Source: an uncultured Bacilli bacterium
GTDB lineage: Bacteria > Bacillota_I > Bacilli_A > RF39 > UBA660
Reading direction: 5' to 3'
Length of the DNA stretch: 64,000 bases
NCBI GenBank assembly: GCA_910589335.1
Contig: CAJUTW010000001.1
Location: 7,972-71,971, forward strand
Shown here: positions 30,475-55,349 of the stretch, piece after piece
Layout: each line of letters starts with the position of its first letter
Numbering within the stretch: the stretch's first letter is position 1
The notes under the pieces: generated by a model
The model's input: the letters and a program-made list of their open reading frames with translations, nothing else
The model's database searches: none
What the model was told of the DNA's origin: nothing
Translations under genes and position numbers: made by a program

Positions 30475-32274
30475 ATGGAAAAGAAAATTATAAGAAATAT
30501 TAAAATTTTAATTGTGGTTGCTTTAATAGCAGCCTTTGTGTGGTTTATAGTAGTATCTCCAATGATAACATTTCATAAAAATGAGGAAAGTTTAGAAAAT
30601 GCAGCAAAAAGATATTTTGAAATAAATAAAGAACAGTTACCAACAGGAGAGAGAGTTAAGACAATTACTTTAAAAGAATTATATAATGATTCATATTTAA
30701 AAGAAGATTTTTATTCTCCTTATAGTAAGAAAAGTTGTTCTATTACAAATAGTTGGGTAAAGGTTAGAAGAGAAAATAATGAATTTAAATACTATGTATA
30801 TTTAGATTGTGGAATACTTAATTCTAAAATAGATCATGATGGACCAGATATTAAGTTAAATGGAGATAGTAAGATTACTTTGGGTGTTGATGAAGTATAT
30901 AAAGAACTAGGAGTTAAAAGTGTAGTTGATAATAACGATGGAAAACTAGATGTTAAAGATGTAACTATAAAAGGAAAAGTAGATACAAGTAAGATTGGTA
31001 CTTATGAAATAGAATATATAGCTTTTGATAAACTTAGTAATAAAACTGTTGTCACTAGAGAAGTTAGTGTTGTTAAAAAAATTAAAAATGTTGTTAAAAA
31101 AGATTTAGGAAATGTTACTAATTATTCTGGAAATCCAACTAACAATTATATTATGTTATCAAATATGATTTTTAGAATATTTGGATTAGATGATAATGAT
31201 AATGTTATTATAGTAGCTGATCAAGATATTGCTAATGTTAATCATTCTAAGTTAGACAAATGGTTAAATTATTATTATAAGCATTTAAATAGTGATGCTA
31301 AAAAAATGCTTGTTAAAAGTAAATTCTGTAATATGGATATTACTGATAATACTTTAGATACTTTACAATGTAATAGTTATACGAAAGAGAAAAATGTATA
31401 TATTCCTTCTATAGTAGAAGTTAATAAAGCACAAGCAGGAGATACTAATTTTATGAAGACTTTTACAATGTCTTGGGTTTCTAATAAGAAAAGTGATAAG
31501 GAAGCATATGTTACTAGAAAATATTTTGTTGGTGATGCAGCTGGTAAAAGTTTTTTAAGTTACAATATTGATGATAATTATGGGGTAAGACCTATGATGA
31601 TTATGAATGGTAATACTAATATTCTTGGAGGAGATGGTTCGTTTTTAAATCCATATTATTTTGAAGATATTAATATAGGAGCTACTAGTAGTTTAGTTAA
31701 TGAGAGAAAAACTGGTGAGTATATTGAAGATCATGGTACATTATGGAGAATAATTGATACTATGGATGATGGTACTACAAAAGTTATTACAGTAGATACT
31801 TTAGGATATGGTATGGATAGTCCAAAGATTTATACTGAGGCAGAAATTATTAAATATAATCCAAATAATAAAAATAATATAGCTTATTATATCAATAATA
31901 ATTTAAATGATTATGTTGATACAAGTAATTTTGTTAATCATGAAATAGAGGTTCCTATTTATAAAGATAAAATAATTTATGGAAAAGAAATAGAAACAAA
32001 AAAATATAAAGTTAAACTTTCTGCTCCAAATATGTATGAAATGTTTAGTGCACAATCTGCAACTGAAAAATTTGCAAATTCACGTTCATATTGGTTATTA
32101 AATACTTCTAATACTAAAAGAAAAACAGGAGCAATTACTGATATAGGAGTTCCTGTTAATGAAGAAATGCAATTGTATGATACTTATGGATTCCGATTAG
32201 TTGCTTATTTGAAAAAGGATAAAGTTATAGTTAGTGGAGAAGGTACTTATTATTATCCATATATAATAAAATAG
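30475..32274 (+). CDS. Membrane-anchored surface protein, paralog A (homologous over its full length to ORF 54135)
   Basis: N-terminal TM. Shared motifs YF...LPT, C-S/T...YL-CG, LWRI(I/V), (Y/W)WLL, (V/I)RP..(I/Y) and a G(E/D)GT...P(Y/F).I.K C-terminus. Confidence 0.5.
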   Translation: MEKKIIRNIKILIVVALIAAFVWFIVVSPMITFHKNEESLENAAKRYFEINKEQLPTGERVKTITLKELYNDSYLKEDFYSPYSKKSCSITNSWVKVRRENNEFKYYVYLDCGILNSKIDHDGPDIKLNGDSKITLGVDEVYKELGVKSVVDNNDGKLDVKDVTIKGKVDTSKIGTYEIEYIAFDKLSNKTVVTREVSVVKKIKNVVKKDLGNVTNYSGNPTNNYIMLSNMIFRIFGLDDNDNVIIVADQDIANVNHSKLDKWLNYYYKHLNSDAKKMLVKSKFCNMDITDNTLDTLQCNSYTKEKNVYIPSIVEVNKAQAGDTNFMKTFTMSWVSNKKSDKEAYVTRKYFVGDAAGKSFLSYNIDDNYGVRPMMIMNGNTNILGGDGSFLNPYYFEDINIGATSSLVNERKTGEYIEDHGTLWRIIDTMDDGTTKVITVDTLGYGMDSPKIYTEAEIIKYNPNNKNNIAYYINNNLNDYVDTSNFVNHEIEVPIYKDKIIYGKEIETKKYKVKLSAPNMYEMFSAQSATEKFANSRSYWLLNTSNTKRKTGAITDIGVPVNEEMQLYDTYGFRLVAYLKKDKVIVSGEGTYYYPYIIK

Positions 32275-32289
32275 TTAGGAGTAAGTAGT

Positions 32290-33123
32290 ATGGCTAGAAA
32301 GAAAAAGAAAAATAAATATAAAATATTTGTGTGTTTTGTTATTTTTTCTATACTTTTATTTGGTTTTATAGGTCTTCTATTATTTAAAAAATATTTTAAA
32401 GTTGAAGAAAGTATTTTTGAAATTGAATCAAGAAGTAGTAATGTAGTAGAAAATAAGAAAAAAGATAATGATGAATATGAGACGATAGGATGGTTGAGGG
32501 TACAAGGTACAAATATAGATTGTCCTATAATAACTGGAAAAACTGAATTATATAAATATCCTGTTGAGCTTGAGAATTATGGTTGGATGACAAATAAGGA
32601 TAGAAAAAATTATAATGTCATGAATATATTTGGTCATAATATTTTCAATTTAGGACCTTCTCCTAAAAAAAGTTCAAATAATTTTAAACGGTTTGAAGAG
32701 TTAATGAATTTTATTTATCATGATTTTGCACAAGAAAATAAATATATACAATTTACAATTAATGGAAAAGATTATGTTTATAAAATATTTTCAGTAAGTA
32801 TTATTTATGCTTCTGATGTTGATATGTTTCCTGAAGGAGAATATAGTAAGCAAGAGAAAAAAGATTATATTAAATTACTTAGAGATAATAGTATTTATGA
32901 TTATGATGTTGATGTATTAGAAGAAGATGATTTAATTTCTATTGTAACTTGTACTAGATTTTTAGGAACTGATGCATATAGAGATATTCTTGTTAGTGGT
33001 AGACTTGTGAGAGATGATGAAAAAATCTATAATAATTATTCTGTTGATAAAAATAATAATTATAAAAAAATAGATAAAGTTTTGAAAGGTGATGATAATA
33101 ATGAAGAAATTGGTTCTGCCTAA
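32290..33123 (+). CDS. srtB: Class B sortase
   Basis: Aligns with S. aureus SrtB: IGWLRVQGTNIDCPIITGKT, active His (IFGHNIF), catalytic Cys LISIVTCT and conserved Arg RDILVSGRLV. N-terminal membrane anchor. Confidence 0.8.
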   Translation: MARKKKKNKYKIFVCFVIFSILLFGFIGLLLFKKYFKVEESIFEIESRSSNVVENKKKDNDEYETIGWLRVQGTNIDCPIITGKTELYKYPVELENYGWMTNKDRKNYNVMNIFGHNIFNLGPSPKKSSNNFKRFEELMNFIYHDFAQENKYIQFTINGKDYVYKIFSVSIIYASDVDMFPEGEYSKQEKKDYIKLLRDNSIYDYDVDVLEEDDLISIVTCTRFLGTDAYRDILVSGRLVRDDEKIYNNYSVDKNNNYKKIDKVLKGDDNNEEIGSA

Positions 33124-35941
33124 AAGAATAATAGGGGTTTTTATTTTAATATGTATTTCTTTAGTTCCTTTCTTTAGTGTTGATGCTAAAGATAAAAGTA
33201 AATGTGAAGAAGTTCTTAGTGAAGATGCTGTAAAAAGATATGGCCTTCAATTTGAACCAAAAAATAAAAAAGAAAAGAAGTTTGTCATATCAATGGATCC
33301 TCAGACTGATAATAAAACGCTTCTTAGCAAATTAAAAAAAATAAAATTTAAGGTTATTAAAATAAATGGCTTTGAACAAAATCTCCCAACAGGAACTCTT
33401 AATTATAAAAATGATTTGGTTATGAATGCAGTTTGGCAAACAGTTGGAGACGAAAAGATAATGTCTGTTACATTAGAGTCAACTGTGGCGGATGTAGATG
33501 GTGATTTTTGTAAAGGAAAAGGAGTTATTCGTTTTACTTTAACATATATAAAGGGTGGTGATCCTCAAGAGCACAATGTATATATTGATACAAGTGATCT
33601 TGATAATGATAAAATAGATACAACAAATCCAATAGATTGTAACTCTAGTCCTAAAAGTGATTTAGATCGATTATTTTGCAATGCCAAAAAAAAGGTTTTA
33701 GAAAAACAACCAAGAGCAAAAAATAAAAAAAATTCAATTCATTTTAGTTTTGATGGAAAATATTATTCTGGTTATAATGATGATAAAGAAGTTAAATATG
33801 AATTAAAATGGGATAAATTTGATTTAGAAGAAAAAGATACTCCTACTTTTAAATGTGATTATAAAAGTGCTTATTCGTTAGATGAATTACAAGGAGATAA
33901 TTATTATAAAGAAGAAAACAAAAGTTATTTATATGGTTCTGGAAGTTATGAAATTCCTTTCAAATATAATTATCATTATTCTCCTGGTAGTGATCCTGAA
34001 ACACATAGTACATCATGTAAGGTTAAATGTGAAGAGGCTGTTACCATTGAATATGGACCTCCAGTAGCTTCTAAGGCTGGATTATGTTTTGAATATAAAG
34101 TAAAGGTTACAAGTGTAGTTAATTGTAGTATGACTAAACCACCTGAACCTCCAAAAACAGATTTTAGTTATTGTGATCCTGCTCCTATTTGTACTACAAG
34201 CAGTGGTTTTGTAAGTAATCAAGGTGGTCCAAATGAAGAGTTTGATAGTTGTATAAAAAATTGTGATGGTGGAAAATATACAGATAAATGTAATAATAAA
34301 TGCTATGAAGAAGTTTATAATAATTCTTTAGAAAAAGTAATGTTTAATTCATTGCAAATAGGTGCAATTGAAAAAATGGCAAACAGTAAATCAAAAATTA
34401 CAAAAAATAGAAAAAAAATTACTAAAAAGAATAATTTAAATAGACTTATTCAACATGATGAAAGTTACTTTTCAATGAATAATTGTAAAGCGATAAATAA
34501 TGGTGGATGTTATGCTAAAAATTCTGATGGTTCTATAAGATGGGAAGGAGGACCAACATTCGCTGGACGTTGGTATGATAATAACCCTCATAAAGATTAT
34601 AGTGAATATGTTAAAGACGGCTTTGGTTTTTGGCGACATCTATATAGAAACAAAAATGAAAAAGGAGAAATTATTGAAACTATTTGTACTGATAATTGTA
34701 AATGGGTTGGATGTGATAATGCTAAGTATTTAAATCCAAAATTTGCAGAACAAGATTATATAAATAACAAAAAGATTTATGATCAAGCTAAAAAGTTATG
34801 TAAAGCAGCAGCTAGTTGTTCAACAACAACAGCAACATTTACTATCTCTGTAGATTATAAACACAATGTAAAAAATGGAAATGGTTTTGAAACAAAATCT
34901 GAAACTATTGATTTCCCTTATGAAAATAAAAAAGATAAATTAAACAGTAATGGTACTAATACAGTGTGTAAGTCAGGAGATGCTCTTTGTAGATCAACTT
35001 TATTAGACAATGATGGATGCTATAAAGATAAAGAAAATGAAAGATGGTACAGAGCTGAATGGAGTTTCCCTGGAACATGGATTGAAAATAAAACTGGTAA
35101 TATAACTTATGTTCCAAAAACAGGTACAGATTGGCAAAATATGAAACAAAAATTTTGTATTCCATTAGATGCATTGGATGTTAACCAAAAATGGTGGAGA
35201 TATTATTACAATAAAAAATTAGCTACACCTAATTCTACAACAGATCCATCATATAAGAATGAATGTGGAAATAACTCTAATTCAATTACTAATCCTGCAA
35301 ATGTTACAAAAGAGGATATTACATGGAATATTCATGCTAAAACTAGAAAATTTGGTTTTTATGCATGGAATATTAATATAGATTGTTTCTATGCTTTAAA
35401 TAGTAATCCTGCAAATGTTTCTACTAGTGATGATAAATCTAAGCAAGATAAATGTATTATTAATGATCAAAAGGGTTCAAATGATTATAAAATAAGACCA
35501 GTAGATTTAACTAATCTATTCCCTGCTACTGATGGTGGAGATAGTAATTTAACTGATCCTAAGAGTACTGGAAGAACACCAGGATTTAACTGGTCACAGT
35601 ATGCTAATACAGGAAATAAAAATTTAAGTTATGCAAGTAAACCTAGTGAATATGTAGAAACTGTTCAAAGATTAGGATATAAAGTTTATAATGATGAAAA
35701 TTTGGATTATCAATTCATTTTAACTAGAGATATATTAAATGATATGAAGACTACAACTAAAGTTAATGGAAAAAATTATACTGAATTTAATGGTAAGACT
35801 GAAGTAAAAAATGGAGTTGTTCATTATATAAGTAGTGCTATTAGAAGTGGTAGTGAATTAAGTAAGGCCAAGAAAAAAATACCAGATAGTGGTAATATAT
35901 TCTGTAATAATATGAAAAATTATAGTCAGGGCTGTAGATAG
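33101..35941 (+). CDS. Large (947 aa) secreted cysteine-rich protein of unknown function
   Basis: Signal peptide MKKLVLPKRIIGVFILICISLVPFFSVDA. Many paired Cys. No C-terminal sorting signal. Confidence 0.5.
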   Translation: MKKLVLPKRIIGVFILICISLVPFFSVDAKDKSKCEEVLSEDAVKRYGLQFEPKNKKEKKFVISMDPQTDNKTLLSKLKKIKFKVIKINGFEQNLPTGTLNYKNDLVMNAVWQTVGDEKIMSVTLESTVADVDGDFCKGKGVIRFTLTYIKGGDPQEHNVYIDTSDLDNDKIDTTNPIDCNSSPKSDLDRLFCNAKKKVLEKQPRAKNKKNSIHFSFDGKYYSGYNDDKEVKYELKWDKFDLEEKDTPTFKCDYKSAYSLDELQGDNYYKEENKSYLYGSGSYEIPFKYNYHYSPGSDPETHSTSCKVKCEEAVTIEYGPPVASKAGLCFEYKVKVTSVVNCSMTKPPEPPKTDFSYCDPAPICTTSSGFVSNQGGPNEEFDSCIKNCDGGKYTDKCNNKCYEEVYNNSLEKVMFNSLQIGAIEKMANSKSKITKNRKKITKKNNLNRLIQHDESYFSMNNCKAINNGGCYAKNSDGSIRWEGGPTFAGRWYDNNPHKDYSEYVKDGFGFWRHLYRNKNEKGEIIETICTDNCKWVGCDNAKYLNPKFAEQDYINNKKIYDQAKKLCKAAASCSTTTATFTISVDYKHNVKNGNGFETKSETIDFPYENKKDKLNSNGTNTVCKSGDALCRSTLLDNDGCYKDKENERWYRAEWSFPGTWIENKTGNITYVPKTGTDWQNMKQKFCIPLDALDVNQKWWRYYYNKKLATPNSTTDPSYKNECGNNSNSITNPANVTKEDITWNIHAKTRKFGFYAWNINIDCFYALNSNPANVSTSDDKSKQDKCIINDQKGSNDYKIRPVDLTNLFPATDGGDSNLTDPKSTGRTPGFNWSQYANTGNKNLSYASKPSEYVETVQRLGYKVYNDENLDYQFILTRDILNDMKTTTKVNGKNYTEFNGKTEVKNGVVHYISSAIRSGSELSKAKKKIPDSGNIFCNNMKNYSQGCR

Positions 35942-35962: not shown

Positions 35963-36463
35963 ATGAATAAGGCGATGTTAACAGTTGGAATAATTTTACT
36001 AAGTTTAATATCTTTACTTTTATTAAATGTATTAAGTAATTATTCGACTGGTGGAGAATTAGACTATTACTTAGTTAAAGAGACAACAGATGCAGCAATG
36101 GTTGATGCTATTGATAAAACTTATTTAAGAACATGTGGGCTATATCGTATTGATAAAGAAAAGTTCGTTGAGAGCTTTCTTTATCGATTCGCTGATAGTG
36201 TAGACACAACAAGAGATTATAAAATTGGATTTTATGATATTAATGAAGTACCGCCTAAAGTAAGTGTTAAGGTTGATTCATTAACTGTTCTAAGTTTTAA
36301 AGCAAAAAAAACTGATGCTGAAGGTAATGTAAGTGAAGATACAAGTGCTGCTACAATAACAACAAACTACGATGCAATATTAGAAGAAAAATATATTTCT
36401 GATCCTGCTGTCGAAGAGGGGCTTACAAGTAATAATTCTTACTTGTGTAAGCCACTAAGTTAG
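35963..36463 (+). CDS. Hypothetical N-terminally anchored protein, possibly a pseudopilin-like (TadE/TadG-like) protein
   Basis: N-terminal TM followed by N-Y-S/T, as in the two TadE-like ORFs (LVVNYTKA, FNVNYTKA versus NVLSNYSTG). Confidence 0.3.
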   Translation: MNKAMLTVGIILLSLISLLLLNVLSNYSTGGELDYYLVKETTDAAMVDAIDKTYLRTCGLYRIDKEKFVESFLYRFADSVDTTRDYKIGFYDINEVPPKVSVKVDSLTVLSFKAKKTDAEGNVSEDTSAATITTNYDAILEEKYISDPAVEEGLTSNNSYLCKPLS

Positions 36464-36478: not shown

Positions 36479-37288
36479 ATGGGTAATTTAACTACAGGTT
36501 TAAAAAAATTTATGCAAAATAAAAATACTGTAACAGTAGTTGGTGTAATATTAGCTATTATAGTTTTATATGTTGCATATACATGGAGGATTAATAAAGC
36601 TGTTAATCCTCAAGTAGTTCCTTATGCTGCAGAACAAATTAATGCAGGAACACAAATTACAGAAAGTATGATTGCTACTAGAGAAGTTCCACCATCAATG
36701 ATTTCTGGAGATGTTTTAATAAATAAAGGAGATATAATCGATAAATATGCTGCTGCTGATACTGTAATTCCAGAAGGAAGTTTATTTTACAGAAGATCAG
36801 TAGTAGAAAAAGAACAGTTACCAGCAAATATAATTTTGGATTATCCAAAGGGGCATGTTCTTTATAATCTTTCAGTTAGTACAGAAAGTACTTACGGAAA
36901 TTCTGTTTATCCAGGAAATTATATAGATATTTATTTAAAAGCAGTTAATAAAATAGATGAATCAAACCCTGCAGCTTTAACAGCAGATGCTGATAAAATT
37001 ATGTTAGGTAAACTTATGTCTAATATTAAAGTTTTAGCAGTAAAAGATTCAGATGGAAATCCGGTTTTCCAAAATATTGATGAAAATAGAAAACCAGCAA
37101 TGATAGTGTTTGCGGTTCCAGAAGAATATTATATTTTACTTAAAAAAGCAGAATATATGAGAACTTATGATACTTCATTAAATATAGTTCCTACTAATGA
37201 AAGTTTAAAAGATGAACCAGCTGATTTGGAAATTAGTAGTGATCAGTTAAAAGAATGGATTAATTTACATACAGTAATGGATCAATAA
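36479..37288 (+). CDS. cpaB: Flp/Tad pilus assembly protein CpaB/RcpC (SAF domain)
   Basis: N-terminal TM plus a SAF-like segment (ITESMIATREVPPSMISGDVLINKGDI). Confidence 0.65.
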   Translation: MGNLTTGLKKFMQNKNTVTVVGVILAIIVLYVAYTWRINKAVNPQVVPYAAEQINAGTQITESMIATREVPPSMISGDVLINKGDIIDKYAAADTVIPEGSLFYRRSVVEKEQLPANIILDYPKGHVLYNLSVSTESTYGNSVYPGNYIDIYLKAVNKIDESNPAALTADADKIMLGKLMSNIKVLAVKDSDGNPVFQNIDENRKPAMIVFAVPEEYYILLKKAEYMRTYDTSLNIVPTNESLKDEPADLEISSDQLKEWINLHTVMDQ

Positions 37289-40609: not shown

Positions 40610-40759
40610 ATGAAAGCAGCTACAGGAGAATTAAATTTAACAGTAATTACTTTACTTGCTATTGCGGCAGTAATTGCATTTTTCTGGGCAATGTGGCCAA
40701 GTATTTCTGAAACAATTAATGGACAATGGACAAATATAAGTACATATGGAGCTAAATAG
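40610..40759 (+). CDS. Small (49 aa) Flp-type pilin candidate (absent from the ORF track)
   Basis: MKAATG/ELNLTVITLLAIAAVIAFFWAMW: short charged leader, Gly, then a hydrophobic helix. RBS AAGGATGG with an 8-nt spacer. Own consensus promoter. Position between tadC and tadE is typical of flp. Confidence 0.5.
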   Translation: MKAATGELNLTVITLLAIAAVIAFFWAMWPSISETINGQWTNISTYGAK

Positions 40760-46758: not shown

Positions 46759-48545
46759 GTATAGGTTTAAGAAGTCAATTAGCTCCTAAGGGGTTACATT
46801 TTAATTCAAGTGATTTTATCATAAGTGATAAATATGCAACAATTTTAACAGTTGTTTCTTATCCAAAATATATTATGCCAGGATATTTATCTTCTTTAAC
46901 TAATATGTCAGGAATTAAGGTTGTTGTTAAACATATACCTGTTCCTTTTCAAGAAATGGCTAAAATGTTAAATAAACAAGTTGCTGATTTAAAAGAAAAA
47001 TATCAAACTGAAAGAGATCAAACTGTTCGTGAAAGAATTAGACAGGATGCAGAAAGTTTAGAATATTTTACTTCTATGCTTGCTGGTAGTCAGGCTCGTA
47101 TTTTTGATTTTCAAATGCATATTATGATTACAGCTGATACAAAAGAAGAACTTGAATTAAAGAAACTTAATGTTAGAAATTATTTAGATTCAATGGAGTT
47201 AAAAGCTATAGCTTTACGTTTTGAACAAGAAAAAGTATTAAAATCTATCTTACCTATTTTTCCTGCACAAGATGTTGAACAGAGAATTGGAACACCGATT
47301 CCTTCTGTAACTATTTCAGCAATGTACCCTTTTATTTTTGATAGTATAAAAGATCCAGGACTTTCAACTTTACTTGGAGTTGACTTTTCTGGAGGAGTTA
47401 TTTTATTTAATCAATTTTTATATAAAATACGTAAAGAAAATAATAGAAATAATGCTAATATGATTATTTTAGGTACATCGGGATCTGGAAAATCTACAGC
47501 AGCTAAATTAATGCTTAGAACTCATATTAGAAATGGATGTCAAATTGTAATAATTGATCCTGAAGATGAATTTAGAGAACTTACTCGTACATTTGGTGGA
47601 GATACAGTTGATATTGGAAAGGGTGGAGAATTTGGTTTAATTAATCCACTTGAAATTGTTATTGATGCTGATGAAGAAGAAATAAAACAAGGATTAGGTT
47701 ATACAGTTTTAACTAGAACTTTACAATTTTTAAAAGCATTTATGAAGTATTATGATCCTTCTATAGAAGAAGATGTATTAACAATGTTTTCTGAAATTGT
47801 ACAAGATACTTATAAAAGATTTGGAATAGATTTTAATGCTGATTTTTCAAGATATACATCAGCTGATTATCCTACTTTTAGTGATGTTTATGCAACTATA
47901 AAAGGTAGGCTTATGTCAATGACTGATCAAACACAAGAACGTGATATTATGGAAAGACTTGAATTAAAAGTTAGACCAATTGTTAAAGAATTGAAATTCT
48001 ATTTTGATGGTCATACAACAATTAGAAAAGATAGCGATTTCATGGTTTTTAATATAAAAGAATTAATGAACAGTGACTCAACTGTTAAAAATGCTTTATT
48101 CTTTAATGTATTAAAATATGCTTGGGGTCTTTGTTTAGATTTTAATGTTGATACAGTTTTAATGGTAGATGAGGCGCATGTTTTACTTGGAGATAATAAT
48201 GCATTAGGAGCTGATTTCTTGGCTCAAGTTCAACGTCGTGCTCGTAAGTATAATACAGGTACAATAATTATTACTCAACAACCTAGTGATTTTTCTAATC
48301 AAGCTGTTATAACACAAGGAAAAGCTATTTTTGATAATTCATCATATTATCTTGTTATGGGGCTTAAAAAACAAGCTGTTGAAGATTTATCTTTATTAAT
48401 AGATTTAAATGAAAGTGAAAAAGAAAGTATTAAACGTTATTCTCAAGGAGAGGCTTTATTCGTTTGTGGAAATAGGCGTATGAGAATTAATATTGCAGTT
48501 ACTCAAGAAGAGTTAGACTCTTTTGGAGTAGGTGGAGGTTTTTAG
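46755..48545 (+). CDS. virB4: VirB4-like T4SS ATPase, C-terminal segment (ConE/TcpF/PrgJ-type)
   Basis: Walker A GTSGSGKST, Walker B LMVDEAHVLL, IIITQQPSD motif. Confidence 0.85.
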   Translation: MSIGLRSQLAPKGLHFNSSDFIISDKYATILTVVSYPKYIMPGYLSSLTNMSGIKVVVKHIPVPFQEMAKMLNKQVADLKEKYQTERDQTVRERIRQDAESLEYFTSMLAGSQARIFDFQMHIMITADTKEELELKKLNVRNYLDSMELKAIALRFEQEKVLKSILPIFPAQDVEQRIGTPIPSVTISAMYPFIFDSIKDPGLSTLLGVDFSGGVILFNQFLYKIRKENNRNNANMIILGTSGSGKSTAAKLMLRTHIRNGCQIVIIDPEDEFRELTRTFGGDTVDIGKGGEFGLINPLEIVIDADEEEIKQGLGYTVLTRTLQFLKAFMKYYDPSIEEDVLTMFSEIVQDTYKRFGIDFNADFSRYTSADYPTFSDVYATIKGRLMSMTDQTQERDIMERLELKVRPIVKELKFYFDGHTTIRKDSDFMVFNIKELMNSDSTVKNALFFNVLKYAWGLCLDFNVDTVLMVDEAHVLLGDNNALGADFLAQVQRRARKYNTGTIIITQQPSDFSNQAVITQGKAIFDNSSYYLVMGLKKQAVEDLSLLIDLNESEKESIKRYSQGEALFVCGNRRMRINIAVTQEELDSFGVGGGF

Positions 48546-48574: not shown

Positions 48575-50914
48575 GTGCCATATCAAAGTCGAAGACAAAC
48601 AAGAAAAAAAGAACAACCTGAAAATGGTGTTGAACCTGAGGTATTAAACACATCAGATGTTGATCCTGCATCACAAAAAAAGCAGGAGCGTCAAGAAGCG
48701 ACTAAAAATGCATTAAAAACTGGTCTTAAAGGAGCAGGAGCTTATGTAGGTGGACCTCTTGGTGCTTATGCTGCAGATAAGTTAGCAAATTCTAAGACTG
48801 GACAAAAAGCACTTAATAAAGGTGCACAGACTCTAAATAAGATACCTGGTATCGGAAGAATTACTAATCGAGTTAATAAAACTGGTGCAATTGATGCCAC
48901 TGATAAAGGAATAGATTTATTTTCTAAATTTGGTGGAAAGAATAAAATTTCTAATAAAAATGTAGAAGTAGGAGGACAAGAGAGTAGTCTTCCTTCTTCT
49001 AGTTCAACAGGTAGCGAAGATGATAGTTCTAGTAAGCAAATAGCAGGGCTTCCTACTAAGTCTAAGATGCCATCTTTTTTAGGGGATAAAGATAAAAATA
49101 AGGATAGTGAAGCAAAAGGTACTGCGAAAGTTAATATACAAATTTTTAAAACAGTAATCTTTGTTTTTGGTCCAATAATTGTAATAATTTTATTATTTTA
49201 TATGGTAATTGCAGGAGTTGCTGGTTTATTTTCTGATTATGAGGATGCTTTTGGAATTAGTCAAACAGTAGGGGAAGAAACAGGAGATGTATATTTTCAA
49301 GCATCTAGTGAAGAACAACAGAAATTTTTTGATAGAGTAAATAATGTAAAACTAGAGTATCAAGCTAATGGAAAAATTGTTGATCCATTAAAAATTGTTG
49401 CTGTTTATCATGTTTTATCACTTAATGGAGCAAATTTAAAATATGAAACTATGGATGATGCAGTTATTAGAAAGATTGCTGATGCAATGTTATTTGATGG
49501 AACTTCTTATAGTGAAGATACTTTTAAAGAAAATTTAATTGCTTATATAATTCCAGAGTATTTACCTAATACTTTAGCAGGAGAGAGAGAACAACTTGCC
49601 GATGATATTTTGGATTATGTTTCTAGATATTACAATTTAATTGGAAAAGAAGAAAATTCAAGTGTTTGTGCATCGATTGGTAGTTGTGTTTATGATATTA
49701 AAGGTTTTGCTTTATCTAATAATGGAAATGTTGCTAAGGCAATGCAAATTAAAGATTTAAAGGTGCGTCTTATGGAATGTGGTGGTGGTTATGGTAGTGG
49801 AAGCTATAATACACCAATAGATCAGGATTTAGTTAATTTTGAAGATTATGTAGCAGGAGTTGCTTATGCTGAAGTTGGTCCTGATGCTCATGTTGAAGCT
49901 TTAAAAGCTCAAATGGTTGCAGCAAGAAGTTATGCTTTAGCTCGTCCTACTGCAATGGGAAATGCTTTAGGAAAAAAATTGGAACAAGAGAATGGGGAGT
50001 GGATTTTACAGATTTCTTCTTGTGTTGCTGATCAAGTATTTTGTAATATTAATGAAGGTTGCTCTTATATGGGAGGAGGAGATGGTCAAGGGGGAGTTGT
50101 TAGAAGTGGAATAGTGCCAGGTGCTATAAGAACTAGACCACCTCTTCCAGAAGGACATCCTCTTAGAACAGTTGCTGCTGAGACTCAAGGTGAAGTTTTG
50201 GTTAATCAACAAGGTTATGTTATATCGACAGGATTTTTAGCAACGGAACAAAGAATATTTATGGCTTTGGCTAGTCAAGGTTTAAATTATAAACAAATTT
50301 TATTGCAAGTTTACAATCAAGGTAATCGTAATTATGGAGCTTTTGATATAGCAAAAGGTAGTTGTAATAACGGAAGTTCATCTAATTGTCAATCTGATAA
50401 TAATAATAATAATAATTATGCAAATTGGAAGCAATATGTAGGTCCTTGGATTAATACTCCAATAGGTACTAGTGGTAATACTATAAAAGGTATAGGATGT
50501 TTAGTTACTTCTGTTTCAATGTTAATTGCTAAAAGTGGAGTTCCTACTGTAATAAATAATTTTAATCCAGGTACTTTTGTTGAGTTTTTAAACAATAATG
50601 GTGGATTTTCTGGAGGAAACTTTAATTGGCCTGCTGCTACAGTTGCTGCTCCAACATTTAAATATCAACGCGGTATAGATGTATTAGGATGGTCTAAAAA
50701 GGATAAACTTAATAAAATAAAAGAAATTGTTAACCAACCTGGATTATATGCAGTTGCAGAAGTTAAGGGAGATACTGGTCAACATTGGGTAGCAATTGAT
50801 TCTGTTACTGGAGATACTATTAAAATGATGGATCCTGGAAGTTCTTCATCTGATATGTGGAGTGAATATAATTGGAACAATACTTCTAGAATAGTTTATT
50901 ATAAAGTTGGATAG
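48575..50914 (+). CDS. T4SS-associated multidomain cell-wall hydrolase (VirB1 functional analog): membrane anchor, SpoIID/LytB-like domain, C-terminal papain-like cysteine peptidase (C39_2/CHAP-like)
   Basis: SpoIID motif DYVAGVAYAEVGPDAHVEALKAQMVAARSYAL. Cys-His pair GIGCLVTSVSM ... GQHWVAIDS. TM at about residues 185-210. Confidence 0.65.
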   Translation: MPYQSRRQTRKKEQPENGVEPEVLNTSDVDPASQKKQERQEATKNALKTGLKGAGAYVGGPLGAYAADKLANSKTGQKALNKGAQTLNKIPGIGRITNRVNKTGAIDATDKGIDLFSKFGGKNKISNKNVEVGGQESSLPSSSSTGSEDDSSSKQIAGLPTKSKMPSFLGDKDKNKDSEAKGTAKVNIQIFKTVIFVFGPIIVIILLFYMVIAGVAGLFSDYEDAFGISQTVGEETGDVYFQASSEEQQKFFDRVNNVKLEYQANGKIVDPLKIVAVYHVLSLNGANLKYETMDDAVIRKIADAMLFDGTSYSEDTFKENLIAYIIPEYLPNTLAGEREQLADDILDYVSRYYNLIGKEENSSVCASIGSCVYDIKGFALSNNGNVAKAMQIKDLKVRLMECGGGYGSGSYNTPIDQDLVNFEDYVAGVAYAEVGPDAHVEALKAQMVAARSYALARPTAMGNALGKKLEQENGEWILQISSCVADQVFCNINEGCSYMGGGDGQGGVVRSGIVPGAIRTRPPLPEGHPLRTVAAETQGEVLVNQQGYVISTGFLATEQRIFMALASQGLNYKQILLQVYNQGNRNYGAFDIAKGSCNNGSSSNCQSDNNNNNNYANWKQYVGPWINTPIGTSGNTIKGIGCLVTSVSMLIAKSGVPTVINNFNPGTFVEFLNNNGGFSGGNFNWPAATVAAPTFKYQRGIDVLGWSKKDKLNKIKEIVNQPGLYAVAEVKGDTGQHWVAIDSVTGDTIKMMDPGSSSSDMWSEYNWNNTSRIVYYKVG

Positions 50915-50922: not shown

Positions 50923-51711
50923 ATGAGAAAGACGAAAACCTATATTAAATTGTTTATTATTTTGTTAGTGTTTTTTATAGTTATGTTTTTAATTTTTGGT
51001 ATTAATAATATAAAACAAAGTAATTATCAGACAACATTATTAATAGGTAATAATACAATATGGAATTATAATAAAAATAAATGGATAAATATTTCTACTA
51101 GAGATTCCATTGAAAAGTTAAATTGGAAAGAATATAACATTTATTTGGACAATAAAGAATTTGGTAAATATTTCTTATGGCATGATGATAAATGGTATGC
51201 TTTTGATAAGAATAAGAATGCTGTAAAACTTGATGGTAATCTGTTGGCTTATAAAGCAAATTTTAAAATGAAATTTTTAGATTTTTCTAAAAAACAAATT
51301 ACAGATAGAACTTATGTAGATTATGTTTTAGAAGAGAATGATTTAAGTTTATCCAGTCAGTTTACAGCTTTTTATAAATTTGATATTGATTTTGATAATG
51401 ATAAAAATTTAGAAGAGTTCTTTATAATAAGTAATGCTTTTCCATTTGATTTTAATCCTGAAAAAATATTTTCGATAGTATTTATGGTTAAAAATAATAA
51501 GGTATATTATTTATATAATGATATTAGTAATAACAGAGAATCATTAAATGGGTGTAAACCTTATTTAAATGGTGTTCTTGATACAAATAATGATAAAACC
51601 TACGAAATAATATTAAGTTGTGCAAGATATAGTGTTTCAGAATCAATCGATATGTTATATAAATTTGATAAAGAAAAAGATGCTTTTAAAATAGTAATTT
51701 CTAATCAATAA
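50923..51711 (+). CDS. Hypothetical N-terminally anchored protein, possibly the VirB8-like scaffold by position
   Basis: Single N-terminal TM. Sits between the hydrolase and the coupling protein. Confidence 0.3.
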   Translation: MRKTKTYIKLFIILLVFFIVMFLIFGINNIKQSNYQTTLLIGNNTIWNYNKNKWINISTRDSIEKLNWKEYNIYLDNKEFGKYFLWHDDKWYAFDKNKNAVKLDGNLLAYKANFKMKFLDFSKKQITDRTYVDYVLEENDLSLSSQFTAFYKFDIDFDNDKNLEEFFIISNAFPFDFNPEKIFSIVFMVKNNKVYYLYNDISNNRESLNGCKPYLNGVLDTNNDKTYEIILSCARYSVSESIDMLYKFDKEKDAFKIVISNQ

Positions 51712-51767: not shown

Positions 51768-54119
51768 ATGAAATTGAAATTTAGAGCAGATCCTGAGGAT
51801 TTATTAATATTTGGAATATTTGCGATTTTCTTACTTTACGTGGTTGCTATTGGAGTTGTAAATTTACATACATTTGCGTCTGAAGGACATTTAGCAGGAC
51901 TTAATCCTTTACCTGCATTTGGACCTGATTATTTATTTTCAACAATCTTTTTATATTTATTATTTTTACTTGGAATTTTTGCTAGTGTAAGTTCTATGTT
52001 TTTTGAAAGTGAAAAAGGTTTTGGTATTACAACTGATAAAAAAGATAAAGGTTATTCAAGATGGGCAAAAGAGAAAGAAATTAAAGAAGAACTAGAAATG
52101 GTTGGAGTTAAACAAGCTGATTCTAAAGTATCAGGAGTTCCTTTAATTTTAAATGAAGAAGAGATGTGGGTTGATAATAGTGAATATCACTCTTTAGTAA
52201 TAGGAGCTACTGGTTCTGGTAAAACTCAAACAGTTATTTTGCCACTTGTTCATAGTTTAGCAAAAGCTAAAGAGTCAATGATTATTACCGATCCTAAAGG
52301 TGAAATTTATGAAAAGACTAGTAATATGCTTAGAGCTAGAGGATATCAAATTCTACTTTTAAATTTCCGTGATCCACAAAATGGTAACGCATGGAATCCT
52401 ATGACTTTGCCGTATGAAATGTATAAGGCTGGTAATCAAGATAAATCAATTGAGTTACTTGATGATTTGGCTTTAAATATTTTATATGATGCTTCTAATA
52501 AAAATGCAGATCCTTTTTGGGAGAAAACATCAGCAGATTATTTTTCAGGAGTTGCTCTTGGATTATTTGAAGATGCTAAACCAGAAGAGATAAATATTAA
52601 TAGTATTTCTTTAGCAACAACAGTTGGAGAAGAAAAATTTGGTGGATCAACATATATTAAAGAATATTTTGGAGCAAAAGATCCTAATAGTCCTGCTTCT
52701 ATTAATGCATCAAGTACAATTATGGCACCAACTGAGACTAAAGGAAGTATTTTATCTGTATTTAAGCAAAAAGTTAAGTTATTTGCATCTCGAGAGAATT
52801 TATCTGAAATGTTATCTCACAGTGATATAGATTTAGAAAGTATTGGTGAGAAACCTACAGCTGTATTTATTGTTATTCAAGATGAGAAAAAAACATATCA
52901 CTCCTTAGTAACTATCTTACTAAAACAAATTTATGAAACTTTAATTAGTGTTGCGCAAAAACACGGTGGAAAATTACCAATAAGAACTAATTTCTTGCTT
53001 GATGAGTTTGCTAATATGCCACCTCTAAAAGATGTTACAACAATGATTACTGCTGCACGTTCTAGAAAAATTAGATTTACAATGATTATTCAAAACTTTG
53101 CTCAACTTGATTCTGTATATGGTAAGGAAGATGCTGAAACTATTCGCGGTAACTGTGGTAATATTATTTATTTAATTACTACTGAGCTTAAAGCCTTAGA
53201 AGAAATATCTAAAATGTGTGGAGAGGTTAAATCTAAAAAAGATGATAAAACGGCTTCTACTCCATTAGTTACAGTATCTGATTTACAAAGAATGAAGCAG
53301 TTTGAAGTAATAATTTTACGTATGCGTAAACAGCCATTTAAAACTAAGTTTACTCCATATTTTAAACTTAATTGGGGTAAAACTTATCCTGAAGCTAGTT
53401 ATCCTTCAAGAGAGAAAGAAGTTGTTAAAACTTTTGATATTAAAGAATATGTAAAAGCGCAAAAGAAGAAAAAATTATTAGAGATGATGAATTCAGCAGA
53501 TGATAAAGATAAAGAACTTGGCAATATGCCAGGTATGCCTGGAATTCCAGGAATGCCTAACTTTCCTGGATTACCAGGAATGCCACCATTTCCTAAGACT
53601 AATCCAATGGTTGAAAAATTACCTCCTGAATTACAAGAAGCAAGAGAAAAAAGAAATATGGGTCCAAATATTCCAGATTTTTTAACTAGAAAAAATTCTG
53701 ATAATCAAGAATCTAACAATTTACCTAATATTCCAGATTTTGAAACATTTAAAAAACAAATGGAAGCTTCTGATAATACTTTTAATCCTTTTGCTCCTTC
53801 TAAAACATCAGCACCATCTTTAAATAAAAGTGATGATGATTTAGGATTTGATGTTGATGAACTTGTTAAGAAAATAGATGCAAAAATAGCAGAATTAGAA
53901 GAGGAAGAAAAAAGACAAAAAGAAGCTGAAGGAAAAGTTAATAATCAAATATCTTCAAAACCTCTTGAAGATAAGAAGTCTGATAGTATTTTATATAAAA
54001 ATGAAGATAAGAATATCAAAAATGAAGAAAATAATAAAGTTCAAACTAAACCAAGTAATTTAAGCTTAGAAGATGATAGTGATGAAGATGATTTCTTTGA
54101 TGATTTCTTTGATAGTTAG
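51768..54119 (+). CDS. virD4: VirD4/TraG-family type IV coupling protein with a Pro-rich repeat and an acidic C-terminal tail
   Basis: Two N-terminal TM helices. Walker A GATGSGKTQT, Walker B FLLDEFANM, RSRKIRFTMIIQNFAQL. Tail has GMPGIPGMPNFPGLPGMPPFP and EDDSDEDDFFDDFFDS. Confidence 0.8.
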   Translation: MKLKFRADPEDLLIFGIFAIFLLYVVAIGVVNLHTFASEGHLAGLNPLPAFGPDYLFSTIFLYLLFLLGIFASVSSMFFESEKGFGITTDKKDKGYSRWAKEKEIKEELEMVGVKQADSKVSGVPLILNEEEMWVDNSEYHSLVIGATGSGKTQTVILPLVHSLAKAKESMIITDPKGEIYEKTSNMLRARGYQILLLNFRDPQNGNAWNPMTLPYEMYKAGNQDKSIELLDDLALNILYDASNKNADPFWEKTSADYFSGVALGLFEDAKPEEININSISLATTVGEEKFGGSTYIKEYFGAKDPNSPASINASSTIMAPTETKGSILSVFKQKVKLFASRENLSEMLSHSDIDLESIGEKPTAVFIVIQDEKKTYHSLVTILLKQIYETLISVAQKHGGKLPIRTNFLLDEFANMPPLKDVTTMITAARSRKIRFTMIIQNFAQLDSVYGKEDAETIRGNCGNIIYLITTELKALEEISKMCGEVKSKKDDKTASTPLVTVSDLQRMKQFEVIILRMRKQPFKTKFTPYFKLNWGKTYPEASYPSREKEVVKTFDIKEYVKAQKKKKLLEMMNSADDKDKELGNMPGMPGIPGMPNFPGLPGMPPFPKTNPMVEKLPPELQEAREKRNMGPNIPDFLTRKNSDNQESNNLPNIPDFETFKKQMEASDNTFNPFAPSKTSAPSLNKSDDDLGFDVDELVKKIDAKIAELEEEEKRQKEAEGKVNNQISSKPLEDKKSDSILYKNEDKNIKNEENNKVQTKPSNLSLEDDSDEDDFFDDFFDS

Positions 54120-54134
54120 AAAGGATGTTAAAAT

Positions 54135-55349
54135 ATGAATTCAAATTTTAATATGGTAAAAAAACCTAAAAAAGAAGAAGTAATTGAAGAGGAAGAAGAG
54201 ACTTTATTAGAAGAAATAGAAGATAAAAATAAAGTTTTATCAGCTCGTAAGAGAATGTATAAAATGATGAAAATAATTATTTTTGGTACTATAATTTTAT
54301 TAGTAATCTTATATATTTGTTCAATGTTTATAAAAAAAGATTATTCTTATACAGAGATTGAAAAGATTGTAAAAGATGCTGCTATTTCATACTTTAAAGA
54401 TAATCCTAATAGTTTACCTACTGAAGAAGGAAATATAGTAGAAATTGATGCAAGTAATTTAGTTGTTGCTGAAAAAATGAAAGATTTAGGTGAATATACT
54501 AAAGAAGGTGTTGTTTGTTCGGCAACAGTTCAGGTTGAAAAGTCTGGTGATCAATTTTTATATACTCCATATTTAAATTGTGGAGATAAATATACTACAG
54601 AAGAGTTATATAAAAGATTAATTAAAGATGAGAACATAGTAAATTCAGGTTATGGTTTATATCAAAATAATGGAGCTTATCATTATCGTGGAGAAAAGGT
54701 AGATAATTATCTTCAATTAGATGAAACACTTTGGAGAATAGTAAAGATTACAGCTAATAATAATATTGTTTTAATAAGTAATGATGGAATTACATATGAA
54801 CAACCTTGGGATAATAGATTTAATGAAAGAAATAAATTTACATCAGGATTTAATAATTATAGTTCTAGTAGAGTAAAAGAATATTTAGATAAAGTTTATT
54901 CTAATCCTGTAAAAGAAAAAGGTGAAATTTTATTATCTGATAAAGATAAGTCTAAATTAGTTTCTTATAACTTATGTACAGGTAAGAGAGATGCTAATAG
55001 TACTGCAAAGGATAATTCTTTAGAATGTACTGAAGTATTACAAAATCAAAAATATGGTTTATTAACTTTATCAGATTATTTATATGCTAGTATTGATTCA
55101 AGTTGTCAAAATGCTGCAACTAAGACTTGTCAAAATTATAATTATTTAGTAAAAAAAGGAAAATCTTGGTGGTTACTTACTGGTGATACAATAGATGATT
55201 CTATCGTGTATGCAGTTAAAGAAAGTGGAGCTGTATCTAGACAAATGGCAAGTAATTATCATACTATAAGACCAGTAATTTATTTGAATAGTAAAGTTTT
55301 ATATAAAAGTGGAGATGGAACACTTGAAAAACCTTTTAAAATTAAATAG
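54135..55349 (+). CDS. Membrane-anchored surface protein, paralog B (homolog of ORF 30475)
   Basis: Same motif set as ORF 30475 (YF...LPTEEG, CSATV...YLNCG, LWRIV, WWLL, IRPVIYL, GDGTLEKPFKIK). Confidence 0.5.
   Translation: MNSNFNMVKKPKKEEVIEEEEETLLEEIEDKNKVLSARKRMYKMMKIIIFGTIILLVILYICSMFIKKDYSYTEIEKIVKDAAISYFKDNPNSLPTEEGNIVEIDASNLVVAEKMKDLGEYTKEGVVCSATVQVEKSGDQFLYTPYLNCGDKYTTEELYKRLIKDENIVNSGYGLYQNNGAYHYRGEKVDNYLQLDETLWRIVKITANNNIVLISNDGITYEQPWDNRFNERNKFTSGFNNYSSSRVKEYLDKVYSNPVKEKGEILLSDKDKSKLVSYNLCTGKRDANSTAKDNSLECTEVLQNQKYGLLTLSDYLYASIDSSCQNAATKTCQNYNYLVKKGKSWWLLTGDTIDDSIVYAVKESGAVSRQMASNYHTIRPVIYLNSKVLYKSGDGTLEKPFKIK

Follow-up and report, generated by a model that had tools for sequence, protein, structure and literature searches.

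What kind of machine is encoded when genes for a T4SS channel and for a Tad/type-IV-filament-like motor share one gene cluster of 20-25 kb, and what might it move? In the window (the whole 64-kb stretch of RF39 DNA that was analysed), about 24 genes for adhesins, a Tad-like module and a Gram-positive T4SS are tightly packed between positions 30475 and 55349, all of them on the + strand, as a preliminary description of this DNA had reported. It had also given gaps of 0-60 nt or overlaps; the overlaps and the tight packing were found, but the upper bound was too low, since intergenic distances calculated from the likeliest start codons range from -23 to +73 nt. The cluster occupies a chromosomal site between greA and a rhodanese gene, flanked by housekeeping genes over 30 kb on the upstream side and 8.6 kb on the downstream side, the latter encoding the rhodanese, DedA, RmuC, Ku and an ATP-dependent ligase. 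Because consensus-like promoters are present in the gaps 42723-42751 and 51715-51743, a single transcript for the cluster is only putative.

Composition of the cluster

The upstream part is variable between species. Two envelope proteins (27937..30466, + strand), of 299 aa with one predicted N-terminal TM and of 517 aa with five, had no Pfam match; the gene for the longer one is present in species L095 and missing from L094. Surface protein A (30475..32274, +) has an N-terminal TM anchor and an Ig-like domain (PF16403, 2.7e-15) and is a paralogue (BLASTP A against B, 1.3e-6) of surface protein B (54135..55349, +), which has a TM anchor, a DUF6273 domain (PF19789, 5.8e-7) and a median identity of 44% between species. 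A divergent class B sortase (32290..33123, +) matched PF04203 (5e-9) and TIGR03064 (56.9 bits, below the cut-off of 153), and a C-terminal sorting signal was absent from every ORF of the window. The sortase gene is missing from L094, as is the gene for a Cys-rich secreted protein (950 aa, 33089..35941, +, no Pfam match) that has 918 aa in L095.

The conserved Tad-like module opens with a DUF5411 protein (35963..36463, +; PF17424, 3.9e-43) with an N-terminal TM, a candidate minor pilin or assembly factor. This family is also located ahead of the ATPase module in pBMB67 (8.9e-6) and in L098, and hhalign related the protein to its counterparts in Peribacillus (65%) and pLS20 (gene 36, 29%). Next come a CpaB/RcpC-like protein with a SAF domain (36479..37288, +; PF08666, 1.7e-6; PF16976, 9e-6; TIGR03177, 6e-10, all under curated cut-offs), which matched the pBMB67 SAF protein (hhalign 99.5%, 2e-22), and a hexameric ATPase of the TadA/CpaF/VirB11 superfamily (37326..38819, +; PF00437 (T2SSE), 3e-27) with intact Walker A, Walker B and His box and a low-complexity C-terminal tail. 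The earlier view that this ATPase is not a plain VirB11 agrees with its best PDB matches (CpaF 69.5 bits, FlaI 69.1, VirB11 56) and with the platform proteins that follow.

The first of these, a TadB-like polytopic membrane protein (300 aa, 38832..39734, +), had no HMM match and was assigned at the profile level: hhalign related it to the protein that follows the ATPase in pBMB67 (90.5%, 1.4e-6, 234 columns), itself a weak T2SSF match (E 0.14), and to the 267-aa TadC-like family (E 2e-4). It is probably a platform paralogue. The TadC-like protein (39734..40537, +) has a predicted GspF/PilC cytoplasmic fold, and its family matched pLS20 gene 39 (hhalign 96%) and a pBMB67 protein (97.9%). A TadZ-like protein (41708..42718, +) is predicted to combine a receiver-like N-domain with a ParA/MinD-like domain, in a structure model of modest confidence (pLDDT 65), and the Walker A lysine is substituted (GVRNVTEHAGATT). 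Neither the TadC-like nor the TadZ-like protein had an HMM match; both identities are predictions, confirmed by structure modelling only.

Between these two genes lie three for small proteins. The first, a single-TM protein of 49 aa (40610..40759, +) with the conserved N-terminus MKAATGELNLTVIT in an alignment of 68 orthologues, is a candidate pilin; it has no G/xxxxEY motif, no HMM match and no significant profile match to Flp or pLS20 gene 41. The other two, of 147 aa each (40772..41677, +), have an N-terminal MRDAxGG, a TM and Cys-containing ectodomains; they are paralogous (hhalign 100%), fast-evolving (median identity 38-42%) and candidate pseudopilins. These TadE-like proteins had no Pfam or NCBIfam match. 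Thus, among the earlier labels TadB, TadC, TadE-like, pilin and TadZ, TadC and TadZ were upheld by structure prediction, and none of the five had an HMM match.

Canonical Tad/Flp systems (Caulobacter Cpa, Aggregatibacter Tad, CP074574) share with this module the CpaB-like protein, the CpaF-like ATPase, the TadZ-type protein, two platform-type membrane proteins (one with the predicted GspF fold, the other its probable paralogue) and, in the same order, the small N-terminal-TM proteins behind them. Unlike them, the RF39 module has no TadV prepilin peptidase in the window, no G/xxxxEY leader and no Pfam T2SSF, Flp_Fap or TadE match, and it is embedded in a T4SS cluster. The apparatus can therefore not be called complete, as it had been, and without the peptidase and the Flp/TadE motifs a true Tad pilus may not form.

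The T4SS module begins with two paralogous (hhalign 99.8%) VirB2-like two-TM proteins of the T4SS pilin family (42776..43715, +; starts 42776 and 43098), which weakly matched PF18895 (26.7 bits, at the cut-off, and 21.3 bits) and the pilin-like Mbov_0395. Monoderm T4SSs have generally been regarded as pilus-free, a view now under revision; according to a 2025 preprint, most Gram-positive T4SSs have VirB2-like pilins. A VirB6-like polytopic channel protein (43726..45891, +; PF19597 TrbL_4, 2.5e-8) had sub-threshold NCBIfam matches to the pLS20_p028 and Mbov_0396 families, and a VirB3/PrgI-like small membrane protein (45915..46226, +) was related by hhalign to the zrk4 protein upstream of VirB4 (77%) and to pBMB67 PrgI (49%). 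VirB4 (46153..48545, +), previously listed as a single ORF, consists of two overlapping ORFs in all related contigs looked at: an N-domain (183-201 aa, 46153/46207-46758), which matched the ORF preceding VirB4 in pBMB67 (hhalign 97.2%), and the ATPase (596 aa, 46755-48545). Positions 81-276 of NCBIfam VirB4_plasma fall on the first ORF and 295-891 on the second (361 bits).

Downstream are a membrane-anchored cell-wall hydrolase, the VirB1 analogue (48575..50914, +), with a SpoIID domain (PF08486, 1e-10; TIGR02669, 2.7e-12) and a C-terminal domain without family match, and an N-terminally anchored protein of 262 aa in a VirB8-like position (50923..51711, +) without family match (hhalign 8% against the pLS20 VirB8-like gene). 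The VirD4 coupling protein (51768..54119, +; NF045973 CD1115 family, 305 bits against a cut-off of 250) has intact Walker A and B and a long proline-rich, acidic C-terminal tail; catalytic motifs are kept in all three ATPases. The combination itself stood: an ATPase nearest to CpaF/FlaI, a GspF/PilC-fold platform, CpaB-like and TadZ-like proteins, together with T4SS genes.

Relatives on plasmids and in Mycoplasma

This combination had been thought to be without a described family; however, homologous modules are found in the transfer regions of pLS20, pAW63 and pBMB67, and on the Mycoplasmatota plasmid CP074574 VirB4 adjoins a canonical Tad locus with Flp pilins. pLS20 and pAW63 are experimentally conjugative, and in pBMB67 and pLS20 the Tad-like genes are co-oriented with those for VirD4, VirB6, VirB4 and the relaxase.

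The component set is shared with pBMB67 (NC_009841; pAW63/pXO2/pBT9727 family of the Bacillus cereus group). Its tra region encodes DUF5411, SAF/RcpC (CpaB), a ParA-type ATPase, a T2SSE ATPase, two polytopic membrane proteins and small TM proteins, together with VirD4 (CD1115 family), VirB6/TrbL, a PrgI-like protein and VirB4 after a separate N-domain ORF. Profile matches reached 90-99.5% for CpaB, both membrane proteins and the VirB4 N-domain. In the pBMB67-type system a MobP3 relaxase adjoins VirD4 and the Tad-like block follows the T4SS block, whereas the RF39 cluster lies on the chromosome, lacks a relaxase within the window, has its Tad-like block first, and its TadZ-like gene, with the degenerate Walker A, follows the pilin-like genes. 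In papers on pAW63, the ATPase is called VirB11, and the proteins encoded around it are left as conserved hypotheticals.

With pLS20 of Bacillus subtilis, the cluster shares its layout, with an adhesin, gene 36 (small N-TM, DUF5411-like), the ATPase gene 37, membrane proteins 38 and 39 and small TM proteins 40 and 41, followed by VirD4, VirB6, a VirB3-like protein and VirB4; identities are 36% for the ATPase, 28% for VirD4 and 23% for VirB4. Unlike the RF39 locus, pLS20 is a plasmid without recognisable CpaB or TadZ and with a MobP2 (MobL) relaxase and regulation genes. It mates efficiently in liquid. Its genes 28-74 have been presented as one conjugation operon, with gene 37 labelled VirB11 and genes 38-41 labelled unknown (PMC8557374).

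The best NCBIfam match of the split RF39 VirB4 is to the Mycoplasma ICE T4SS (Mbov_0395/0396/0397), below the family cut-off, as are the weaker matches of the VirB2-like proteins and VirB6. Mycoplasma ICEs, which are mobile through a DDE transposase, are not known to carry a Tad-like module. The RF39 lineage is related to Mycoplasma, and its genomes are often labelled Tenericutes or Mycoplasma. A type IV filament alongside a T4SS-type DNA translocator is known from the IncI thin (type IVb) pilus of R64 and from the archaeal Ups pilus with the Ced importer, where the filament serves mating in liquid or cell aggregation before DNA exchange. These systems are diderm or archaeal, with canonical type IV pilus genes and prepilin peptidases.

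Conservation in RF39 and alternative explanations

Relatives of the cluster were detected in at least 581 genome stretches from species-representative genomes, and the identifiable ones belong to the order RF39 (assigned via Ca. Faecimonas = CAG-877), uncultured gut Bacilli with small genomes of 1.4-1.5 Mb. In the 54 species-level genomes with full flanks, gene order and orientation are identical for every detected gene, differences being a few undetected genes, and the downstream rhodanese and RmuC genes are kept in 49. Since this strict synteny extends into the adjoining housekeeping genes, it is in this lineage not in itself proof that the modules are functionally coupled. Synonymous sites are saturated between the species compared, and dN/dS was 0.07 for VirB4, 0.08-0.085 for the TadC-like and TadB-like proteins, 0.13 for the ATPase and 0.14 for VirD4, compared with 0.11 for the neighbouring RmuC and 0.3-0.45 for envelope-exposed or surface parts. 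The core cluster genes are under strong purifying selection and as constrained as host genes.

As described before, relaxase, integrase and rep genes are absent, here from the whole window; neither an oriT-processing nor a single-strand-binding gene was found in it. The locus is fixed at the same greA-rhodanese site across the genomes examined and is not a typical ICE. It is probably a domesticated contact-dependent translocation machine of the pLS20/pAW63 type, chromosomally fixed and vertically inherited in RF39.

It is conceivable that the machine delivers protein effectors or toxins into neighbouring bacteria or host cells after losing its DNA-processing genes, as in Rickettsia (rvh), Bartonella and Xanthomonas, whose T4SSs of this kind work without a relaxase. 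The window has no relaxase, yet VirD4 has been kept and is conserved, the flanking adhesin-like proteins are fast-evolving and vary from species to species, as target recognition predicts, and the small genomes would make dependence on other cells plausible. However, the cluster yielded neither a candidate effector nor an immunity gene, no secretion signal could be recognised in it, the nearest homologues are all DNA-conjugation systems, and a relaxase could sit elsewhere in the genome.

Somewhat more doubtful is DNA uptake or species-wide chromosomal exchange without a classical relaxase, in which the filament would contact or aggregate cells and the T4SS-like channel would move DNA. Archaeal Ups pili with the Ced importer, Helicobacter ComB and ICE-dependent chromosomal transfer in Mycoplasma are analogues. 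VirB4, VirB6 and the VirB2-like proteins have best or near-best matches to the Mycoplasma ICE proteins, VirB4 also matches CedD (46.8 bits), and with the system in every related genome examined, donors and recipients alike would have it. RmuC, Ku and the ligase lie directly downstream, but this neighbourhood may just mirror general genome synteny; furthermore, no ComEC/ComEA-type genes were found in the window, and VirD4 is conserved, whereas ComB-type importers are not known to have it.

A chance neighbourhood of two independent loci, one for a Tad-like adhesion pilus and the other for a T4SS, is unlikely. The consensus-like promoters lie between the modules, canonical Tad loci function alone in many bacteria, and the Tad-like module of L098 is located beside chromosomal genes on a short contig with no T4SS visible. 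On the other hand, at least four unrelated types of replicon have the ATPase/platform/CpaB/DUF5411 subfamily next to VirB4 or VirD4, namely pLS20, pAW63/pBMB67, a VirB2-encoding Peribacillus plasmid and RF39. In addition, the TadC-like family is small, with 470 representatives in 1.84 billion; it stayed separate from the bulk T2SSF family when scanned with phmmer and is thus outside the generic Tad pool.

An ordinary ICE with relaxase and integrase beyond the window is very improbable: the gene set corresponds to that of conjugative plasmids and GC is 3-8 points higher in the cluster (~0.27-0.32) than in the flanks (~0.21-0.25), but the site is unchanged among the species-level genomes examined despite saturated synonymous sites, the flanking housekeeping genes include no integrase, rep or relaxase gene, and the core genes are as constrained as those of the host.

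A probable domesticated translocation machine

The domesticated machine would have two parts: a secretion channel (two VirB2-like proteins, VirB6, the VirB3-like protein, split VirB4, wall hydrolase and VirD4) and a motor (DUF5411, the CpaB-like protein, the CpaF/VirB11-family ATPase, two GspF-fold platform proteins, the small N-terminal-TM proteins and the TadZ-like protein). We infer that both modules work as one machine and that a filament is made. The variable adhesins would grip the target cell, and the motor might build a short filament or pseudopilus, or otherwise aid the channel through the thick wall opened by the hydrolase; the filament could thereby steady cell-cell contact in liquid. 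VirD4 and VirB4 would then drive a cytoplasmic substrate into that cell via the VirB6/VirB2 conduit. The homology with conjugation systems makes DNA our first guess for this substrate, and protein effectors are nearly as likely since no relaxase is linked. The combination of modules is known from plasmids; what is novel is its chromosomal setting, without a linked relaxase in the window and strongly conserved in RF39.

Organization of the cluster and of the surrounding window

The cluster consists of 24 consecutive ORFs on the + strand (30475-55349), with intergenic gaps of -23 to +73 nt if the most plausible start codons are assumed. The single co-oriented unit of the preliminary description was thus borne out, as was its tight packing, with a computed range slightly wider than the 0-60 nt of gaps or overlaps reported there. 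A terminator scan placed no terminator-like site inside the intergenic gaps of the cluster; in the AT-rich DNA of the window, the output of both the promoter and the terminator scan was at chance level. Within the cluster, only the ATPase, the TadZ-like protein and both parts of VirB4 are cytoplasmic.

Domain searches identified, in this order, an Ig-like surface protein (30475), a divergent class B sortase (32290-33123), a DUF5411 protein (35963), a SAF and RcpC/CpaB-like protein (36479), a T2SSE ATPase (37326), a TrbL_4/VirB6 protein (43726), VirB4 (46755), a SpoIID hydrolase (48575) and a DUF6273 surface protein (54135), the latter a paralogue of the first surface protein. VirD4 of the CD1115 family (51768) scored above the curated cut-off, two T4SS_pilin (PF18895) proteins (42776 and 43098) gave weak matches, and the 950-aa Cys-rich protein (33089) was without a family match. 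Most gene labels proposed earlier were therefore supported by domain searches; none of the HMMs matched the proteins provisionally labelled as TadB, TadC, pilin, TadE-like and TadZ-like. Neither Pfam nor NCBIfam matched the 300-aa, 267-aa, 49-aa, 147-aa, 336-aa and 262-aa proteins, two of which were searched up to an E value of 10. The sortase is present despite the lack of C-terminal LPXTG/NPXTN-type sorting signals in any ORF of the 64-kb window, and at least one related species (L094) has a cluster that lacks it.

Outside the cluster, several further features were observed. The low-GC stretch at 1-6600 (0.20-0.24) contains consecutive small ORFs with no family assignment and, at 1480-2463 on the minus strand, the gene of an AAA_25 (RepA/KaiC-like) ATPase, the only mobile-element-like gene in the window. 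This stretch, which may be a small integrated element or a remnant, continues without a break into the remainder of the window in L011, the sole related contig that spans it. A 138-aa ORF with a chloramphenicol acetyltransferase domain (PF00302, 8876-9292) lies among housekeeping genes and falls clearly short of the usual CAT length. At 15027-17393, a hybrid histidine kinase/response regulator of 788 aa is a single ORF in the window and in contig L009 and is found as two genes (397 and 379 aa) in contig L008, either through a frameshift or assembly difference or as a natural split.

The secretion half and the Tad-like half

The T4SS half has the components expected of a Gram-positive conjugative system. 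VirB4 matches PF12846 and PF19044 as well as the NCBIfam families VirB4_plasma (361 bits) and CD1110 (178 bits); its Walker A and B motifs are intact, as they are in all three ATPases of the cluster. It is encoded by two ORFs (46153-48545), an N-domain of 183-201 aa carrying PF26593 (TraC-like) and a 596-aa ATPase, which overlap by 4 nt in an ATGA-type arrangement (46755-46758) and align to positions 81-276 and 295-891 of VirB4_plasma, respectively. Since this split is kept in every related contig looked at and is common to the plasmid pBMB67 of the pAW63/pXO2 family, it looks like a stable two-subunit protein and not like a frameshift. VirD4 reached 305 bits with NF045973 against a cut-off of 250; its long, low-complexity C-terminal tail (53450-54119) contains PGMPG repeats and an acidic DDFFDDFFDS end. 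The remaining parts are a VirB6-like protein (TrbL_4, 2.5e-8), the cell-wall hydrolase (SpoIID, 1e-10), VirB2-like proteins (T4SS_pilin, 26.7 bits with a cut-off of 26.6) and a VirB3/PrgI-like protein (49-77% in hhalign). The 262-aa anchored protein (50923) occupies the position expected for VirB8 and reached only 8% probability in hhalign with the VirB8-like candidate of pLS20.

The motor of the second half matches PF00437 (3e-27). Compared with solved structures in the PDB, it scored 69.5 bits with CpaF, 69.1 with FlaI and 56 with VirB11, a slight margin, and in NCBIfam 111.7 bits with VirB11 and 102.6 with the TadA type, every score being below cut-off. Its sequence thus places it in the CpaF/FlaI/VirB11 clade with an ambiguous subfamily. 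The C-terminal tail (38400-38819) is long, of low complexity and rich in N, Q, V and P, and the length of the protein varies from 497 to 538 aa between species. Two platform proteins with a GspF/T2SSF domain were recognized, the 267-aa TadC-like protein (39734) by predicted structure and the 300-aa TadB-like protein (38832) at profile level. The TadB-like protein matched the TadC-like family (hhalign, E 2e-4 over 167 columns) and, at 90.5%, the first membrane protein after the ATPase of pBMB67, itself a weak T2SSF match. The TadC-like family profile had no match among PDB sequences, and single-sequence hhalign against the TadB/TadC proteins of zrk4 was weak. The 336-aa protein (41708) is predicted to combine a receiver-like domain with an atypical ParA/MinD ATPase, as in TadZ/CpaE; phmmer found no PDB match for it. 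The CpaB-like protein contains a SAF domain above the Pfam cut-off (1.7e-6), with RcpC (9e-6) and TIGR03177 (6e-10) under cut-off.

The candidate filament subunits differ from those of a canonical Tad system. The 49-aa protein (40610) starts with MKAATGELNLTV, the two 147-aa paralogues (40772-41677) with MRDAxGG, and all three have a short leader ending in Gly followed by a hydrophobic helix. The G/xxxxE[YF] leader of Flp, TadE and TadF was not found: E[YF] is absent at +5/+6, and no profile match to Flp or TadE of zrk4 or to any pilin was obtained. In addition, no gene of the 64-kb window encodes a peptidase A24 (TadV/CpaA prepilin peptidase) domain. A five-TM protein of 517 aa upstream (28913) was considered as a fused prepilin peptidase and ruled out, having neither an A24 match nor a GxGD-type motif and being missing in other species. 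From the motor and platform matches together with the absent A24 and pilin signatures it therefore follows that the module is Tad-like in motor, platform and accessory proteins, and that the "complete" Tad-type pilus of the preliminary description is unsupported. The observation of a joint locus was itself confirmed; its interpretation as a whole was only partly right.

Plasmid precedents, chromosomal site and conservation

Contrary to what had been thought, the combination is not new: pLS20, pBMB67, a Peribacillus plasmid and a Mycoplasmatota plasmid are all precedents. A megablast search with 20 kb of the cluster gave no match to plasmids, and the informative comparisons came from protein-level searches only. 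In pLS20 (NC_015148), the operon contains an adhesin, small proteins, an ATPase (gene 37) 36% identical to that of the cluster, membrane proteins 38 and 39 and small TM proteins 40 and 41, followed by VirD4, VirB6, a VirB3-like protein, VirB4 and a relaxase; gene 39 is matched by the TadC-like family at 96% (hhalign) and gene 36 weakly by DUF5411. Plasmid pBMB67 encodes a relaxase, VirD4, VirB6, PrgI, a separate VirB4 N-domain ORF and VirB4, and next on the same strand DUF5411, SAF/RcpC, a ParA-type ATPase, a T2SSE ATPase, two membrane proteins and DUF4320. Profile matches between pBMB67 and the RF39 families reached 99.5% for CpaB, 90.5% and 97.9% for the membrane proteins and 97.2% for the VirB4 N-domain. 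The Peribacillus plasmid has the same Tad-like block followed by a VirB2 gene, and on the Mycoplasmatota plasmid VirB4 adjoins a canonical Tad locus in which the Flp leaders are genuine. The CpaB-like protein matches 363 plasmids, 357 of them from Bacillus and pXO1 included. In another organism (L098, 2544-7430), a more distant relative of the module, with a 49-aa protein, DUF5411, RcpC, a 343-aa T2SSE ATPase and two membrane proteins, adjoins the genes for ThrE and a pseudouridine synthase; that contig ends before T4SS genes could show. Three distant TadC-like homologues were traced, all to contigs too short to reveal a linked T4SS.

In the papers on pLS20 and pAW63, the ATPase is named VirB11 and its neighbours are given as conserved hypothetical or unknown genes. 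No relevant paper emerged from literature searches that combined RF39 with pili or type IV secretion, or Gram-positive conjugation with Tad. Apparently, the Tad-like half of these known plasmid systems has been overlooked, since in the literature reached it was not read as such.

The plasmid systems have a linked relaxase, whereas no relaxase domain was found across the 64-kb window, and integrase, excisionase and replication genes were likewise absent from it, in agreement with the preliminary description. The site is chromosomal in character: ireB, ruvX, DUF1292, mltG, two U32 peptidase genes and greA lie upstream (up to 27882), and a rhodanese gene, dedA, rmuC, Ku, an ATP-dependent ligase gene, a class Ib (Trp/Tyr-type) tRNA synthetase gene and others lie downstream, with neighbours constant across species-level genomes. 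Directly behind the cluster (56316-59948), RmuC, a DUF3603 protein and the end-joining pair of Ku and ATP-dependent DNA ligase are encoded in what is a very small genome; the first three recur in related contigs, and the ligase was seen only in the window.

A scan of one genome per species for VirB4 relatives returned at least 581 stretches. The best 80 of these are 82-97% identical and belong to MAGs from the guts of humans, mice, rabbits, chickens and ruminants, which bear the labels Bacilli, Tenericutes, Mycoplasma sp. CAG:877, Ca. Faecimonas and Ca. Onthousia; Ca. Faecimonas corresponds to the GTDB genus CAG-877 of the order RF39 (PMC8035907). Among the matches listed, one carrier is a circular chromosome of 1.52 Mb. 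Near-identical clusters also occur in genomes labelled Acidaminococcus fermentans, Muribaculaceae or Clostridia (L031, L065, L085); in view of their 83-91% identity to RF39 VirB4, the probable cause is mis-binning or mislabelling of MAG contigs and not horizontal transfer.

In all 54 loci with full flanks, the detected genes from the CpaB-like protein to the second surface protein have the same order and orientation, the loci differing only by a few undetected genes, and rhodanese and RmuC follow in the same order in 49 of them. Median amino-acid identity is 87.6% for VirB4, 82.5% for the ATPase, 77% for the TadB-like protein, 73% for both VirD4 and the 49-aa protein and 72% for the TadC-like protein (82.5% for the neighbour RmuC as comparison), and 38-47% for the 147-aa proteins, VirB6, the hydrolase and the second surface protein. 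With dS about 1, synonymous sites are close to saturation, and dN/dS is 0.07 for VirB4, 0.08-0.085 for the TadC-like and TadB-like proteins, and 0.13 and 0.14 for the ATPase and VirD4, respectively (RmuC 0.11), reaching 0.3-0.45 in the exposed parts. The upstream adhesin part varies, one species (L094) having neither the sortase nor the Cys-rich and 517-aa proteins, with the cluster still located after greA.

Possible functions

The locus is a chromosomal version of a plasmid conjugation apparatus, conserved throughout the lineage and relaxase-less within the window. A recently integrated element is ruled out by the constant site and order and the near-saturated synonymous sites, and a decaying ICE remnant by the dN/dS values and the intact ATPase motifs. 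Most likely, the cluster encodes a single machine of the pLS20/pAW63 type for contact-dependent translocation, in which, as we infer from their repeated co-occurrence in unrelated replicons, the Tad-like module and the T4SS are functionally coupled. The variable adhesins would attach to a partner cell and the hydrolase would open the wall. Together with the small N-terminal-TM proteins, the Tad-like motor and platform might form a short filament or pseudopilus, or aid assembly across the wall, and could thereby stabilize the contact in liquid. VirD4 and VirB4 would then push a cytoplasmic substrate through the VirB6/VirB2 conduit.

By homology to the plasmid systems, the substrate of this machine may be DNA. 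Alternatively, protein effectors might be translocated: the relaxase linked in the plasmids is missing from the window and VirD4 is conserved, and effector translocators, too, typically keep VirD4 in the absence of a relaxase. A third possibility, by analogy with the Ups/Ced systems of archaea and the ICE-dependent chromosomal transfer of Mycoplasma, is relaxase-independent exchange or uptake of DNA; in NCBIfam, VirB4 is matched best by Mycoplasma ICE T4SS families, which also weakly match VirB6 and the VirB2-like proteins. We tentatively suggest, as a minority reading of the data, that RF39 has domesticated a plasmid-type conjugation machine together with a type-IV-filament-like module as a core organelle for obligate cell-cell interaction, used either for species-wide relaxase-independent exchange of chromosomal DNA or to take from partner cells or inject into them.

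If this were true, the "VirB11" blocks of pLS20, pAW63, pXO2 and pXO1 would be Tad-like filament machines that are part of Gram-positive conjugation. A whole group of Gram-positive conjugation systems, including the model plasmid pLS20 and the pAW63/pXO2 family, would then have a type-IV-filament-type motor (ATPase, GspF-fold platform, CpaB and TadZ) beside the VirB4/VirB6/VirD4 channel. RF39 bacteria are widespread and abundant in human and animal guts, have never been cultured and are metabolically reduced, their genomes measuring about 1.5 Mb. The presence in hundreds of species of a 20-kb secretion machine under housekeeping-level selection points to a central part of the RF39 lifestyle and offers a concrete handle for attempts at cultivation or co-culture.
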